A DNA stretch of 64,000 nucleotides from assembly GCA_964603585.1 (NCBI GenBank), contig CAZRVK010000001.1, positions 69,327-133,326 on the forward strand. The letters run 5' to 3'. A program made the translations under genes and the position numbers. This DNA comes from an uncultured Planctomycetales bacterium (GTDB taxonomy: Bacteria; Omnitrophota; Gorgyraeia; Gygaellales; Profunditerraquicolaceae). The notes under the pieces were generated by a model that worked only from the letters and a program-made list of their open reading frames with translations, was not told where the DNA came from and did not search any database. Below, piece by piece: positions 30,391 through 33,664 of the stretch (the stretch's first letter is position 1; every line of letters begins with the position of its first letter).

Positions 30391-30430
30391 GAAGAAAAAA
30401 AATGGCGGTTCCAAAAAATCAGAACCGCCA
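30391..30430 (-). terminator. rho-independent terminator after the PilZ gene pair
   Basis: minus strand: GGCGGTTC-tgatttttt-GGAACCGCC hairpin then ATTTTTTTTCTTC. Confidence 0.65.
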
Positions 30431-30450
30431 CTTAAATTATCCCGTATTTT

Positions 30451-30801
30451 CTAAAGGTGCTGCATAAGGTATTGCTCGATATTCTTGCGGTCATCCTTAT
30501 GGATCGACGTAAACTCTATTCCGGCATCATAAGCCTGGCTGGTCCCGATATTACCAACCGCAAATTCATCGATCCATGCCACCCGTCCCTGGGCAGTAAC
30601 GCCTTTTTCATCCCCAGGCAGGGAAAATTTAAGGCTTAAGGTATCACCGATATTGAGCTTTTCCAAAGCAACGATACAAATCCCGCCGCCGCTAAGATTC
30701 TTGCTTTTTCCAACTTTTAAAAAGTCCGGTGACGAATTCAAAAGTTTATACTCTACTTCTACACTAAAATTCAGCCTGGGGAACCGCCTGCGTTCATCCA
30801 T
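30451..30801 (-). CDS. PilZ-domain c-di-GMP-binding protein
   Basis: RRRFPRLN (RxxxR) and NLSGGGICIV (D/NxSxxG) PilZ motifs. Confidence 0.75.
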   Translation of the reverse strand: MDERRRFPRLNFSVEVEYKLLNSSPDFLKVGKSKNLSGGGICIVALEKLNIGDTLSLKFSLPGDEKGVTAQGRVAWIDEFAVGNIGTSQAYDAGIEFTSIHKDDRKNIEQYLMQHL

Positions 30802-30808
30802 GATATTT

Positions 30809-31144
30809 TTAGATCTCCTCTCGTTCTACCTCTGAAACCTCCGAAGGATCGAAGAAATACACCGTTGCGTTAGCCTTGCCTTTATCGGGAGTAACCACAA
30901 GGTAATTGTTGGCTTCAAAGATCGCGCAAACCTGTTCATGAGGGAGATTGGAAAGATTAAGATCCAGCTCATCCCCCACATTGATCTGGGAAAATACCGG
31001 CCTTTTGATTCGGCTGCTAAAGGCATGAACATTGATCTTTTTGATATGCGTGTCTTTTACCGGAGCACCTGTTGCCTGTTCGGCAAACCTCTTAAACCGC
31101 TCTCTCACCTCAGGTGGAATGGGGAATTGCTTGTTCTCATTCAT
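30809..31144 (-). CDS. hypothetical protein, possible degenerate PilZ-like domain
   Basis: 111 aa; PEVRERFKRF arginine motif; strong SD AAGGAGGTG 7 nt upstream of ATG; 7-nt gap to the PilZ gene. Confidence 0.45.
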   Translation of the reverse strand: MNENKQFPIPPEVRERFKRFAEQATGAPVKDTHIKKINVHAFSSRIKRPVFSQINVGDELDLNLSNLPHEQVCAIFEANNYLVVTPDKGKANATVYFFDPSEVSEVEREEI

Positions 31145-31160
31145 AATTACACCTCCTTAT

Positions 31161-31322
31161 CCAGAAAGGATAACACCGGCGCATTACCGATTAGCGCCGG
31201 GTGTTCCAGAAAGGATAACACCGGCGCATTACCGATTAGCGCCGGGTGTTCCAGAAAGGATAACACCGGCGCATTATACCCAGTCCAGGTACACTGGCGC
31301 AATGCCGATTAGCGCCAGGTGC
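31161..31322 (-). repeat. tandem array of a 45-nt hairpin module (two identical copies, one partial, one diverged) in the leader of the PilZ gene pair
   Basis: unit CCAGAAAGGATAACACCGGCGCATTACCGATTAGCGCCGGGTGTT at 31161-31205 and 31206-31250; each has CACCGGCGC/GCGCCGG(G)TG stem; diverged copy 31292-31321 has CACTGGCGC/GCGCCAGGTG (compensatory C>T / G>A). Confidence 0.8.
31273..31302 (-). promoter_or_regulatory. candidate promoter (TTGCGC-18-TATAAT) embedded in the hairpin-repeat array
   Basis: minus strand: TTGCGC (31297-31302), 18 nt, TATAAT (31273-31278); -35 lies in the loop/stem of the diverged hairpin copy. Confidence 0.4.
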
Positions 31323-31324
31323 CG

Positions 31325-31362
31325 AAAATAAAAAAAAGCAACCCTCATTTCCCGAGAGTTGC
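31325..31362 (-). terminator. rho-independent terminator downstream of the histidine kinase gene
   Basis: minus strand: GCAACTCTC-gggaaat-GAGGGTTGC hairpin then TTTTTTTTATTTT. Confidence 0.65.
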
Positions 31363-31501
31363 CTTTACGAAAATTCTACCGGTATTTTCATTTCACGCCT
31401 CCTCTGCTGCCACTCAAAGGACTCGTCTTTTGCTGTTACCTTATTATACTACTTTTTGATCTTTTGCAAGCTTTTTTTATAATTCTGGATCCAAAGGTTT
31501 A

Positions 31502-33664
31502 TTACTTGGCTAAGGGGAGCTCAATAGTAAAGGTAGTGCCTTGCTGGTATTGGGATTCAAAAGAGATCTTGCCTTTATGCGCTTCGGTAATGATCTTTTT
31601 GATCACATAAAGGCCCAGACCAGTGCCTTTACGATTAGTGGTTTTTGTGGTAAAAAACGGGGTAAAGATCTTGTTTAAATTGCTTTCCTTCATCCCCATA
31701 CCATTATCGATAATTGTAATCTCAAGATTTGCCCCTACGGGCTTGGCATGAAAGATGATCTTTCCGCGGTAACCTTCTTCTTTTAACATAATCCTGCGTT
31801 CAACTATGGAATCATAGGCGTTATCAATAAAATTAAAGAATACCTCCTGCAGTTGCACCAGGTTACCATTTATTTTCGGTGTATCTTGAGGGTAATCGCG
31901 CACAAGATCAATATCAGGAAGCTTGATCTTATATTGCACCATAGCGATCGTACCGTCAATCACCTGATCCAAGGCCAAGGGTTCAAAATGCTCTTCTCCG
32001 GCTTTTGTGTACTTAAGTATCCCTTTAACCACCTCTCCGCCCTGTATGACATTTACCTGTATCCGGTCAAGGGCATGCGCCACATCAGAGATCATCTTCT
32101 GGATCTCCGGCGTGCATTTAGAAACATCAATATCCTTGATCGTATCGATACTATCTCCGGCAATAAGCGACAAGGCATAAAAACGGTTATTGATCTGATG
32201 AGAAAGGCCATAAGCCATAGTCCCGACAGTCGCCATCTTTTCGGTCTCGGCAACTTGCTCGGTCATTACTTTCGCATCTTCATAGAACTGGGCATTCTCA
32301 ATTGCAAGCGCCGCCTGGCTGGCCAAAACCTGAAAGACATCCAGATCGTCCAAAGTATAAATCTGCCCGGAAAGTTTATCCCCTAAAATAACAAACCCCA
32401 AGAACTTATTTTCAAGGAATATCGGAATAACCACCGAAGCATCCAACAGGCGCATATTATCTTCTAAATACTTATAAGTCGGGTTTGTGCTATCCTCCAT
32501 CTGGTGTTTTACTTCTTCATAAAGTAACGGCTCGCGTTTCACCATAATCCAGGATACTAAGGGATTTGCCGCCGGCAACCTAAAAACCGCATTTGTGCCA
32601 TGATGGCGATACACCTGCATTACATATTCATCTTTTTCCGGGTCATACAGGTAAATTGCCGCATGAGAGATATGCACAGTTTTAGTCACAATACGCACGA
32701 TTAAATCCAAAAGCCTTTTTAGGTCACGGACTCTGGTCATACCGATGGAAGCCTGTTTGAGGGTTCTTTGATACTGCTTTTGCTCCTTCAGCAGACGGTC
32801 TTCGGCTTTACGCTGGACAAAGATATAAATAAACGGCCCGACAGTAGCTAAAACTGCCATTAGCCCTAAAGGAACACCCCACCAGTTAGCGCCGAAGAGC
32901 TCAATCAACCTATCCTTAAACCATGCAACAGCCGCAAAAGGAAGACCGAGGACTAAGGTGTAAACTAAAACAAAAACACCCGCGCGAGTAATAGCAACAT
33001 TTACGTCTAAAAGCCTATATCTTAAAATAGCATAAGTTCCTATTATTCCATAAAGAGCAACTCCAAAATTACCAATAGGATAAATATCAATTCCTATGGC
33101 TGGCAGTAAAGTTGAACCTCCTCCAATAAATCCTACGGCAAATCCACCTAAAAGATATAATCCTTGAATATGCTTAAAACCACTACTTTTTCTAATAAAT
33201 CTCACTAATTCATAATGCCCCAACAAAGAAACAAAAACCCAACTACAAGACATTAAAAGATATAATATGGTTGGACTATTATAAAAAAAGTTATAAACGA
33301 GATGCCAATGAGCAAACATTACACCTTCCGGTGTAAAAATAGTTAATAACCAAAAGGTTACTCCTTGCGCATAAATCAAAGCTAAAATCTTTTTCTTATC
33401 TATCCCGCAAAAAACATATATAGTATGATAAAACAAAACCGCCAAATACAATCCTCCAGTAGTAGCTACTTTCCAACTCAACCAAGCTTCACTTGTTGTT
33501 ATGGAACGACTAAGGAGGAAAGTTCCTATTCCCCAAATCAAAACAGATAGATTAAATAGCAACCAAATCTTATGTAATCTTGATTTACCAAATATTAATA
33601 AAATTACAATCAAGATAGAGCTCACAACTGAAATCAATATCCCGGAAATTGCGAACAAATTCAT
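31502..33664 (-). CDS. sensor histidine kinase with N-terminal 7TM-receptor domain and GAF domain
   Basis: ~280-aa polytopic N-terminus (7TM-HK type), GAF region, H-box (LSHQINNRF), HATPase_c (GTGLGLYVIKKII…GTTFTIELP); start overlaps stop of the upstream oxidoreductase gene; no response regulator adjacent. Confidence 0.75.
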   Translation of the reverse strand: MNLFAISGILISVVSSILIVILLIFGKSRLHKIWLLFNLSVLIWGIGTFLLSRSITTSEAWLSWKVATTGGLYLAVLFYHTIYVFCGIDKKKILALIYAQGVTFWLLTIFTPEGVMFAHWHLVYNFFYNSPTILYLLMSCSWVFVSLLGHYELVRFIRKSSGFKHIQGLYLLGGFAVGFIGGGSTLLPAIGIDIYPIGNFGVALYGIIGTYAILRYRLLDVNVAITRAGVFVLVYTLVLGLPFAAVAWFKDRLIELFGANWWGVPLGLMAVLATVGPFIYIFVQRKAEDRLLKEQKQYQRTLKQASIGMTRVRDLKRLLDLIVRIVTKTVHISHAAIYLYDPEKDEYVMQVYRHHGTNAVFRLPAANPLVSWIMVKREPLLYEEVKHQMEDSTNPTYKYLEDNMRLLDASVVIPIFLENKFLGFVILGDKLSGQIYTLDDLDVFQVLASQAALAIENAQFYEDAKVMTEQVAETEKMATVGTMAYGLSHQINNRFYALSLIAGDSIDTIKDIDVSKCTPEIQKMISDVAHALDRIQVNVIQGGEVVKGILKYTKAGEEHFEPLALDQVIDGTIAMVQYKIKLPDIDLVRDYPQDTPKINGNLVQLQEVFFNFIDNAYDSIVERRIMLKEEGYRGKIIFHAKPVGANLEITIIDNGMGMKESNLNKIFTPFFTTKTTNRKGTGLGLYVIKKIITEAHKGKISFESQYQQGTTFTIELPLAK

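Follow-up and report, generated by a model that had tools for sequence, protein, structure and literature searches.

A two-hairpin intergenic module of Omnitrophota genomes, tandemly arrayed before a PilZ-domain operon

Repeated hairpins between genes are known from several systems. REP/BIME elements and REPIN-RAYT systems are built from short, imperfect GC-rich palindromes that are extragenic, often intercistronic and co-transcribed, occur in clusters and are probably copied through recognition of the hairpin (PMC3116915, PMC3337134), and hundreds of REPINs have been reported in a single Pseudomonas genome (PMC3337134). The module described here resembles REP elements in its first hairpin, H1, an imperfect palindrome of 30-34 nt with one bulged base, and in the intergenic position of its copies. 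It differs from them in its second hairpin of free sequence (H2), its precise placement against the next Shine-Dalgarno (SD) sequence and a sequence common to many species of a phylum, and it differs from REPINs in forming direct or nested arrays instead of inverted doublets, with few copies per genome seen. The pneumococcal BOX element (boxA-boxB(n)-boxC), whose internal module can be absent or tandemly repeated, gives stable transcribed stem-loops thought to affect co-transcribed genes, and such parasitic repeats are over-represented between convergent genes (PMC3049150). Our module comes from a different taxon, has no boxA/boxC-type flanks or terminal inverted repeats, and is almost absent from convergent spacers.

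In phage T7, related hairpins that are RNase III sites are repeated between cistrons of polycistronic mRNAs, directly upstream of the next ribosome-binding site (RBS), and other processing or stabilising hairpins occur between cistrons too. The module hairpins are likewise intercistronic and directly before the next RBS, but H1 (~11 bp, bulged) is short for RNase III, and the copies are chromosomal and phylum-wide. Tandem structured RNA repeats of 35-45 nt beside a small gene are also found in ToxI arrays and CsrB/RsmZ sponges, and in ToxIN-type loci a terminator follows the repeats. At our locus the terminator precedes the array, orthologues of the adjacent 111-aa gene lack the repeats and the module occurs at housekeeping genes, unlike a type III toxin-antitoxin (TA) system; unlike a CsrB/RsmZ-type sponge, the module has no conserved GGA loops and the array continues into an SD and an ORF. 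It also differs from riboswitches, including c-di-GMP-I/II, in having no match to a curated covariance model and no single-pathway association, and from CRISPR in having no unique spacers.

The array and the operon behind it

The window, by which we mean the whole 64,000-nt stretch analysed, carries a 45-nt tandem array on the minus (gene-sense) strand at 31160-31276, with 2.6 copies, 100% matches and a score of 234 (TRF). This agrees with the two perfect and one partial copies described in an earlier note on this DNA, and the head-to-tail arrangement, with a period equal to the unit length, supports its statement that the array is not a CRISPR. A 30-nt core occurs twice as an exact match in the window and in none of 100 shuffles of it. 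Each unit comprises two hairpins, H1 and then H2: H1 has a GC stem in which one C is bulged and a loop of 11 nt, UAAUCGGNAUU (the H1 loop in the window is UAAUCGGUAAU), and H2 is short and variable. Folding recovers the previously proposed hairpin with an 11-nt loop in each unit (-19.8 kcal/mol, z = -3.8), but the unit had been quoted in antisense.

Next to the operon lies the proximal full unit (31161-31205, minus strand; TRF; 49.8 bits with our covariance model, CM), which folds, and whose H2 (UUAUCC-UUUCU-GGAUAA, 31173-31157) extends into native sequence and adjoins the SD. It is preceded by the distal full unit (31206-31250, minus strand; 100% identity by TRF; CM 44.9 bits), with H1 and a weak 3-bp H2, and by a partial unit (31251-31276, minus strand; TRF and sequence) made of the last 4 loop nt (UAAU), the H1 3' arm and an H2 segment. 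A diverged fourth copy of the same family was found by a repeat search of the window (31278-31322, 64% match) and by the CM (31277-31321, minus strand; 53.1 bits, E = 6e-12; fold -18.3 kcal/mol). Its H1' (31321-31292) has the arms and loop CACCUGGCGC/UAAUCGGCAUU/GCGCCAGUG and is followed by H2' (31291-31277), both on the minus strand. The compensatory stem substitution reported for this copy is there: a paired C>T/G>A change (CACCUGGCGC...GCGCCAGUG) keeps the stem pairing, and this pair also covaries in the family as a whole (CG 39, UA 5, UG 1). Where the diverged module adjoins the next copy, at the last 4 loop nt of the latter, the junction is the one found in nested copies at other loci. 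Around the array we found no flanking modules or terminal inverted repeats; its bounds are a terminator and the SD. The number of full copies is that of one assembly, a second, independent assembly of the same organism (L135) stopping inside the array. The array also gives spurious plus-strand ORFs of 124 and 99 aa in the window, and module arrays call for caution in annotation on both counts, spurious ORFs and broken short-read assemblies.

All genes at the locus are on the minus strand. The array leads into the strong SD noted earlier (GGAGG, 31156-31152) and the ATG (31144-31142) of a 111-aa ORF (SD and start together 31142-31156; ORF 30809-31144), and this is followed by a 116-aa PilZ-domain ORF (30451-30801; PF07238, E = 1.2e-15). 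Both had been called PilZ genes, which is correct for the 116-aa protein but not for the 111-aa protein, a conserved Omnitrophota protein with 12 homologues (59-100% identity) and no known fold matched. Pfam gave no match of any kind for the 12 homologues at E <= 10, a PDB profile search and a Foldseek search with an AF2 model (pLDDT 78.7) gave no match, and the RxxxR and D/NxSxxG PilZ motifs are missing from the homologue alignment; its similarity to the neighbouring PilZ protein is weak and extends over 19 residues (E = 0.01). The gene order 111aa-PilZ-HTH_17-SMC is conserved, and a terminator-like hairpin found by terminator scan (30400-30433, minus strand) would end the two-gene operon.

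Upstream of the array, the terminator scan placed an intrinsic-terminator-like hairpin (14 pairs) with a T-run at 31324-31366 (minus strand); its GC-rich stem (31366-31334) is followed by TTTTTTTT, which fits the definition of an intrinsic terminator. The array had been placed between the terminator of an HK operon and the gene pair. The placement stands, but the hairpin is also kept in genomes whose upstream gene does not encode a kinase: GCAAC...GTTGC and the T-run recur in six orthologous 111-aa/PilZ leaders, whatever the upstream gene. The hairpin is a conserved leader element of the 111-aa/PilZ operon. A putative 8-codon uORF (MKIPVEFS*, 31365-31391, minus strand) with its own GGAGG has a stop codon that overlaps the foot of this terminator; in the orthologous locus L125 a similar small ORF (MKIPEKIC*) adjoins the terminator, and it is less clear in other orthologous loci. 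A candidate leader promoter (31443-31469, minus strand) would consist of TTGCAA (31469-31464), a 15-nt spacer and TATAAT (31448-31443). It is missing from the promoter scan list because of its 15-nt spacer, and promoter-like hexamers stand at the matching place in L120, L124, L125 and L131. The promoter that had been proposed within the array, TTGCGC-18-TATAAT (31273-31302, minus strand), is present as sequence where the diverged and partial copies meet, with its -10 at 31278-31273, but its -35 (31302-31297) matches at only 3/6 positions and a consensus scan did not list it. Since the array lies downstream of the leader terminator, a read-through transcript would have, ahead of its SD, three H1 hairpins and the 3' half of a fourth unit.

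A dispersed family with covarying helices

The module belongs to a family that is dispersed through Omnitrophota genomes and absent from Rfam. A first search with the pattern GGCGC-N4-CCGATTAGCGCC gave at least ~50 Omnitrophota-type loci among the 119 matches listed, several per metagenome-assembled genome (MAG), with up to 8 exact-pattern copies per MAG among those matches. In 372 kb of MAG DNA from Omnitrophota (8-kb fragments), our covariance model R1 found 56 copies at E < 1e-4, 10 of them not found by the exact pattern; a broader model, R2, gave no further clear copies and still missed the variant in L120. Family-wide, H1 is 30-34 nt in all, with a GC-rich stem of 9-11 bp whose 5' arm has a single bulged C and a loop of 11 nt, and H2, which begins directly after H1, has 4-6 bp of variable sequence and a pyrimidine-rich loop. 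In the source genome there is one module locus in ~78 kb, which include the S10 ribosomal-protein operon and the adjacent rpoC-to-tuf cluster, and no further copy was seen in the ~14 kb beyond the window ends. A metagenome scan with the window's own loop variant and a viral contig scan for the module each gave one match, in a coding region and by chance. Rfam gave no family match for the module over the whole window at gathering thresholds, and searches of 30700-31600 at E <= 10 and of five orthologous loci at E <= 0.1 returned only terminator-driven noise and one tRNA. No paper linking Omnitrophota to such a motif was found in a literature search.

Both helices of the module are kept by compensatory change. 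In an alignment of 46 distinct copies fitted to the model, 95.7% of cells across both helices are paired, and 9/14 pairs show changes on both sides (5/5 in H2, 4/9 in H1); 0/500 shuffles reached the observed covariation values, and slid controls stayed at or below 58%. The search pattern behind most loci leaves no freedom in the upper H1 stem and in part of the loop, so conservation at those positions is no evidence. The hairpin directly after H1 has a mean dG of -6.1 kcal/mol, against -1.7 kcal/mol for upstream flanks (single-sequence folds, p = 4e-6). Wobble cells comprise 9 G-U and 13 A-C, or 7 and 2 without helix-terminal pairs, which is weak and not decisive evidence as to strand. The earlier note had argued that the hairpins are selected for pairing, and the covariation of both helices supports this. 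The module is also dispersed at dozens of unrelated intergenic sites, as that note would have expected of a REP-like element, but with the stem covariation that it did not expect of one.

Judged from gene calls and flanking sequence, the copies appear to lie mostly in sense within transcription units, typically filling the gap between a stop codon and the next SD. By crude gene calls, both neighbours are co-oriented with the module at ~39 copies, both are opposed at 7, and 1 copy is in a convergent spacer. In the 13 cases checked, H1 follows the upstream stop at a distance of 0-22 nt; many copies are inside operons 0-9 nt past a stop codon, and an SD and start codon follow 10-13 nt past H2 in 23/56 copies. 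The stop codons just before H1 are those of GroES, S18, PurD, an ABC ATPase, a GHMP kinase and others, and the genes that follow the module encode GroEL, S16, L9, L20, SpoVG, PurE, CysK, PAPS reductase, bactofilin and others, with groES-groEL, rpsR-rplI and purD-purE as example junctions; the downstream genes are unrelated housekeeping genes of no single pathway. Because of this placement in sense, copies are predicted to be part of mRNAs. A loop-specific RNA role cannot be obligatory, because seven copies and that in L120 are antisense to their neighbours. The sense bias could stem from a replication-strand bias of ssDNA transposition. One copy adjoins a tRNA gene.

Copies differ between related genomes by presence, absence and inversion. 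The orthologous PilZ-operon leaders L124, L125, L128 and L131 have no module and L120 has one, inverted; a ~105-nt insertion in L122 relative to L124 was considered as an H1 module and rejected on its fold. The same gene carries the module in three related species (L004, L016, L042), and one H2 variant (UGUGU-CUGU-ACACA) stands before different genes in different genomes. At the four loci with nested copies (L007, L033, L082, L116) the join falls exactly ahead of the last 4 loop nt, and the window junction is identical; direct pairs are seen at L012 and L027. Clustered copies are direct or nested in the same orientation, never inverted doublets. We found no target-site duplication and no conserved insertion flank beyond an A at -1 and +1 and the SD. 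Around the copy group in CAZPNW01 and JBAZKL01 stand heptamer repeats, AACCGAT, that have the loop core, ATCGG, in common with the module.

Mobile element, RNA signal or both

The window array is not a PilZ-specific regulator, because the module occurs across Omnitrophota, mostly between a stop codon and the next RBS. The proposed link to PilZ and c-di-GMP is not supported, as the module stands before dozens of unrelated genes and is absent or inverted at orthologous PilZ operons. Nor is a GGA-linker titration site supported, the linker GGA being paired in H2 and the base that follows CGG in the loop of H1 being variable, and U in the window. A stand-alone sRNA gene is not supported either; the module is found within operons, straight after the upstream stop codon. 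Tandem structured repeats directly upstream of a small ORF and then a PilZ gene, with a perfect TATAAT within the array, did invite a c-di-GMP riboregulator, a CsrA-like sponge, a locus-specific sRNA or a type III TA array. With no Rfam riboswitch, c-di-GMP or other, GGA not conserved in the loops, and an array that leads straight into an SD and ORF instead of a terminator, these options are largely refuted and together extremely improbable. Very unlikely, too, is a DNA operator, in which a dimeric transcription factor or nucleoid protein would bind the inverted repeat CACCCGGCGC-N11-GCGCCGGTG: the repeat has a conserved centre, and joint changes of both half-sites would mimic covariation, but the conserved one-base asymmetry of the bulged C and the adjacent free-sequence hairpin do not suit a symmetric operator, and many copies are inside operons, 0-9 nt past a stop, where no promoter is expected. 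On inspection we also dropped a sigma-54 promoter (wrong -24/-12 spacing), an integron attC site (no R''/R' core, and flanking genes that are core genes), RfaH ops, K-turn, CRISPR, ToxI-type array and CsrA sponge.

The two remaining alternatives differ in whether the module moves. It could be a miniature mobile DNA, wholly selfish and with no host function, of the REP/RAYT or IS200/IS605-derived type, a possible account that we hold to be somewhat doubtful. An HUH-type enzyme would recognise the bulged H1 on ssDNA and nick in or near the loop, pairing would be kept for transposition, and SD adjacency would reflect target preference or insertion tolerance. Identical modules before unrelated genes in many genomes, the exact nested junction at four loci and in the window, the presence, absence and inversion at an orthologous locus, and the copy adjoining a tRNA gene all fit such an element, and the AACCGAT heptamers resemble iterons around a nick-site hairpin. 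Copy number fits less well, with at most 8 exact-pattern copies per MAG among the matches listed against hundreds of REPINs in one Pseudomonas genome, as do the direct or nested arrays without REPIN-defining inverted doublets, the single copy in a convergent spacer, the usual place of selfish repeats (PMC3049150), and the fact that no target-site duplication or conserved flank was seen. H2, moreover, varies in sequence but keeps its pairing and SD position, for which a transposase has no obvious need. That geometry, stop-H1-H2-SD-start, would be natural for a vertically inherited, immobile cis-regulatory RNA motif through which a conserved trans-acting protein or RNA co-regulates a wide range of housekeeping genes, for instance through processing between cistrons or through re-initiation. 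The conserved loop and bulge beside covarying stems, and the presence of the module at the same gene in L004, L016 and L042, are consistent with this, and the H1 apex GCGCUAAUCGGAAUUGC matches E. coli 16S rRNA GCGUUAAUCGGAAUUAC at 15/17 positions, which could mean an rRNA-binding factor, but the likeness is to E. coli and may not hold for Omnitrophota. The UGUGU-CUGU-ACACA variant before different genes and genomes is hard to explain without copying, however, and the nested, inverted and absent states and target genes without common function add to the difficulty, so strict vertical inheritance is quite unlikely.

The best reading, to which we give an even chance, is a structured intergenic element that spreads by copy-and-paste and is predicted to be co-transcribed with mRNAs, its function being inferred. 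In this reading the array itself is a local tandem amplification of the 45-nt module with its two hairpins, the diverged copy being attached in the manner of nested copies. A hairpin-recognising ssDNA enzyme would be the obvious candidate for copying, and copies may persist wherever their hairpins, once transcribed, bring a benefit or do no harm. In the transcript, the module would most likely be a general-purpose structural cassette immediately 5' of the SD, which could insulate the SD from upstream sequence and provide a stable 5'-proximal or processing hairpin for the downstream cistron, the H1 loop and bulge perhaps offering a handle for a conserved factor.

A wider proposal, which we make tentatively and regard as on balance unlikely, is that H1-H2 is a new kind of phylum-wide expression signal, a cassette between cistrons or in 5' leaders whose bulged H1 recruits a conserved Omnitrophota factor. 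By processing the mRNA, or by loading ribosomes at the SD next to the cassette, such a factor might determine how much is made from second cistrons (groEL, rplI and purE, for example); it may be ribosome-associated, because the H1 apex resembles the 16S rRNA segment GCGUUAAUCGGAAUUAC. Self-targeted insertion would spread the cassette, and changes in copy number, of which the window array would be one, would tune individual operons.

Removing the tempting link between the hairpins and c-di-GMP at this locus leaves an element of wider reach. Omnitrophota are uncultivated, and we are aware of nothing that is known about how they control expression after transcription start. A strongly covarying element held at single-nucleotide register to the RBSs of core genes in many species gives a testable handle on this: the covariance model is ready for annotation, and the element can be mapped in existing metatranscriptomes.

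The hairpin module and its structure

The 45-nt module upstream of the 111-aa ORF belongs to a dispersed family and is not a locus-specific leader. The members are two-hairpin structured elements that lie mostly in sense orientation within transcription units, in register with the Shine-Dalgarno sequence (SD); they bear evidence of copying and are tandemly amplified in the window. Each joins H1, with a GC stem, a bulged C and an 11-nt loop, to the short, variable H2. The 17-base pattern GGCGC-N4-CCGATTAGCGCC, scanned against a collection of one genome per species, matches at least 119 stretches, where we estimate ~70 by chance for a collection that size. Matches in GC-rich genomes lack module context around the pattern. 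At least ~50 come from Candidatus Omnitrophota MAGs or MAGs with similar-looking neighbouring genes, with up to 8 in one MAG among the matches listed. At the Omnitrophota-type loci H2 directly follows H1, and its sequence varies by locus (UGUGU-CUGU-ACACA, GCCGC-UUUCU-GCGGC, UGCCC-UUGU-GGGCA; UAUCC-UUUCU-GGAUA in the window). From ten seed copies, a covariance model recovered 56 at E < 1e-4 in the 372 kb of pattern-found loci; in the window it recovered the three known copies and no others, and a second, broader model gave no further clear copies. The Rfam scan proposed in the earlier note matched no family to the module, and we found no description of it in the literature.

The structure of the module is under selection. 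Over 46 distinct sequences, in an alignment fitted to the covariance model, standard pairs fill 95.7% of cells, and 9 of 14 pairs change on both sides (5/5 in H2, 4/9 in H1). None of 500 shuffles reached the observed pairing and covariation values, and pairing falls to 20-58% with slid partners as a control. In other H1 variants GGCGC/GCGCC is replaced by AACGC/GCGUU, CGCGC/GCGCG or UGCGC/GCGCA, and at L120, a locus orthologous to the 111-aa/PilZ operon, the upper stem is swapped to AAACC/GGUUU. Because the alignment was model-fitted, the 20 nt after H1 were also folded sequence by sequence; of the 40 distinct sequences, most fold into a hairpin that begins at the first base or its neighbour, with a mean dG of -6.1 kcal/mol, versus -1.7 before H1 (Wilcoxon p = 4e-6). 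The pattern search fixes the upper stem of H1 and some of its loop positions, so invariance there is not evidence; copies found only by the model have looser loops (UAAUUUG, UUAUAGG, UGAUUGG, AGAUCGG). The earlier note had set its reading against a dispersed element lacking stem covariation: the dispersal is real, with dozens of intergenic sites that have nothing in common, and the covariation is present.

The commonest H1 apex, GCGCTAATCGGAATTGC (for example L092 4363-4380 and window 31199-31177), agrees with the confirmed E. coli 16S rRNA sequence GCGTTAATCGGAATTAC at 15/17 positions, an exact 11-mer included. Either coincidence or rRNA mimicry may account for the agreement; the reference is E. 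coli, from which Omnitrophota 16S may differ.

Placement within transcription units

In 23 of the 56 copies an SD and start codon follow on the same strand, 10-13 nt past H2, and additional copies are set back upstream from such a site by one module. Downstream lie housekeeping genes unrelated to one another: GroEL, ribosomal proteins S16, L20 and L9, SpoVG, PurE, a cysteine-synthase-type enzyme, a PAPS-reductase-family protein, bactofilin, a glutamate-synthase-domain protein, SMC and others. An upstream stop codon on the same strand ends 0-22 nt before H1 in 13 checked cases, whose upstream genes include GroES, S18, PurD, an ABC ATPase and a GHMP kinase. Where the gap is 0-9 nt, neither a promoter nor a terminator would fit, and the module must therefore be transcribed inside polycistronic mRNAs. 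By a crude gene caller, both neighbours are co-oriented with the module in ~39 copies, both opposed in 7 and convergent in 1.

This distribution does not fit the roles that had been suggested for the array, namely a c-di-GMP riboregulator, a titration site (sponge) for an RNA-binding protein or a small RNA gene. CRISPR was rightly set aside, as the array fails its architecture; a type III toxin-antitoxin array was likewise rejected on architecture.

A nested double module at L033 (2290-2460) runs exactly up to the 5' terminus of a tRNA-Gly(CCC) gene, the outer H2 3' arm being the first 5 nt of the acceptor stem. In the MAGs CAZPNW01 and JBAZKL01 (L060, L066, L077, L103, L113) the modules are not SD-adjacent and sit within AACCGAT / ATCGGTT heptamer runs, whose core ATCGG is shared with the H1 loop, a layout resembling iterons around a hairpin.

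The 111-aa/PilZ operon and its array

All genes around the array lie on the minus strand. A 7TM-GAF histidine kinase gene (720 aa, 33664-31502) and a 357-nt spacer precede the 111-aa ORF (31144-30809), which is followed by the 116-aa ORF (30801-30451), a terminator-like hairpin (30433-30400), an HTH_17 gene and SMC; the order 111aa-PilZ-HTH_17-SMC is kept at orthologous loci. The two small genes had been described as tandem PilZ genes, which is correct for the 116-aa protein (PF07238, 1.2e-15) and not for the 111-aa protein, a member of a small conserved Omnitrophota family. Pfam matched PilZ in 0 of 12 family members, a profile search of PDB sequences with the 111-aa protein gave no PilZ match, Foldseek with its AlphaFold model (pLDDT 78.7) gave no significant match, and the RxxxR and D/NxSxxG motifs are absent from the family alignment. 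About 2-3 kb past the window's left end, the same genome has another pair of small PilZ-domain genes (L133 8352-9313), and the hairpin module was not found there.

The operon has a conserved leader (window 31324-31469, minus strand; L120 2780-2945; L124 1250-1410; L125 2850-2975; L128 1300-1435; L131 1350-1490), in which promoter-like hexamers, then ~80-120 nt of poorly conserved sequence, precede a GCAAC...GTTGC terminator hairpin. This hairpin (GCAAC...GUUGC as RNA) and its T-run stand directly upstream of the 111-aa gene at all orthologous loci, whatever the upstream gene, so the supposed terminator of the histidine kinase operon is a conserved part of the 111-aa/PilZ leader, most simply read as an attenuator needing read-through. 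Upstream of it, the window has the promoter-like sequence TTGCAA-15-TATAAT (31469-31443, minus), and the stop of an 8-codon ORF, MKIPVEFS* (31391-31365, minus), overlaps its foot; a similar ORF at L125, MKIPEKIC*, ends at the same place, and such an ORF is less clear at other loci. These stops at the terminator foot suggest, at the level of sequence, translation-dependent attenuation. Rfam gave no match in the leader in the window or at five orthologous loci.

In L124, L125 and L131 the terminator ends 5-15 nt from the SD, with no insert; in the window the module array is inserted at this point. Tandem Repeats Finder counts the 45-nt unit 2.6 times with 100% identity (31160-31276, score 234); a diverged copy adjoins it (31277-31321), and the 30-nt core occurs in none of 100 window shuffles. 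On the gene-sense strand the unit reads AACACCCGGCGC-UAAUCGGUAAU-GCGCCGGUGUU-AUCCUUUCUGG and folds at -19.8 kcal/mol (z = -3.8). The arms of the diverged copy, CACCUGGCGC...GCGCCAGUG, carry a paired change, confirming the compensatory substitution of the earlier note; across the family this pair is CG in 39, UA in 5 and UG in 1. The diverged and partial copies recur in an assembly of this organism made independently from short reads (L135), so the repeat is real; the full copy number rests on one assembly, because L135 breaks off within the first full unit. As for a promoter embedded in the array, the sequence TTGCGC-18-TATAAT is there (31302-31273); its -35 matches 3/6 consensus positions and a consensus promoter scan did not list it.

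At 31139-31206 (minus) the sequence directly after the SD, GGAGGUGU, duplicates the last part of the 3' arm of H1, CCGGUGUU. When the last unit is folded to minimum energy, the H1 foot ACACC pairs instead with GGUGU at the SD. This modelled alternative, seen at the window locus only, would hide part of the SD. On the plus strand (30938-31331) the array gives rise to spurious ORFs of 124 and 99 aa with repeated peptide segments (SRKDNTGALPISAGC), which are likely mis-annotation traps.

Copying and possible function

One H2 variant reappears before different genes in different genomes. In L007, L033, L082 and L116 a complete module lies within another H1's loop, always joined directly before the last four loop nucleotides, and L012 and L027 hold direct module pairs. 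The window junction matches the nested type: the diverged hairpins H1'-H2' are followed by UAAU-GCGCCGGUG, the unit's 3' half. Orthologous leaders L124, L125, L128/L130 and L131 lack the module, and that of L120 has one, inverted and with a different upper stem, which retains the AACAC-C...GGUGUU base and UCCUUUCUGG tail. Around the copies, neither a target-site duplication nor a conserved flank was seen.

The stretch directly upstream of the 111-aa-family SD seems to be an insertion/duplication hotspot. L122 (2875-2990) differs from L124 (1395-1420) by a ~105-nt insertion between terminator and SD, with AGGAGGT at both ends and an identical encoded 113-aa protein; the insertion lacks the fold of an H1 module. 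A related additional stretch, AAGGAGGTGATGATT...GGATAGGAGG, is present in L128 (1430-1500) and L130. At L125 (2962-2990) an H2-like hairpin, UCCC-UACAA-GGGA, adjoins the SD without H1 and may be a module remnant or an independent hairpin.

The closest known kinds are REP/REPIN (PMC3116915, PMC3337134) and pneumococcal BOX (PMC3049150). The module lacks the inverted doublet that defines REPINs and the terminal modules of BOX, and differs from both in its two-hairpin design, fixed SD-relative placement, few copies per genome among the matches listed, and phylum-wide spread. A strong rival to a function in RNA is a purely selfish element transposed via ssDNA, for which replication-strand bias and a target preference beside SD-like sequence could yield much of the positional pattern. 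Two observations count somewhat against it, neither decisively: H2 stays paired although its sequence is free, and convergent spacers are avoided. The reverse holds for pneumococcal BOX, RUP and SPRITE repeats, whose enrichment between convergent genes has been interpreted as parasitism (PMC3049150).

We infer both a mechanism that copies the module and a role at the RNA level, in which it would form a structural cassette on the 5' side of the SD. The intercistronic processing hairpins of phage T7 offer a functional analogy. Such a cassette may insulate, may provide 5'-proximal stabilisation or processing, or may be recognised by a factor.
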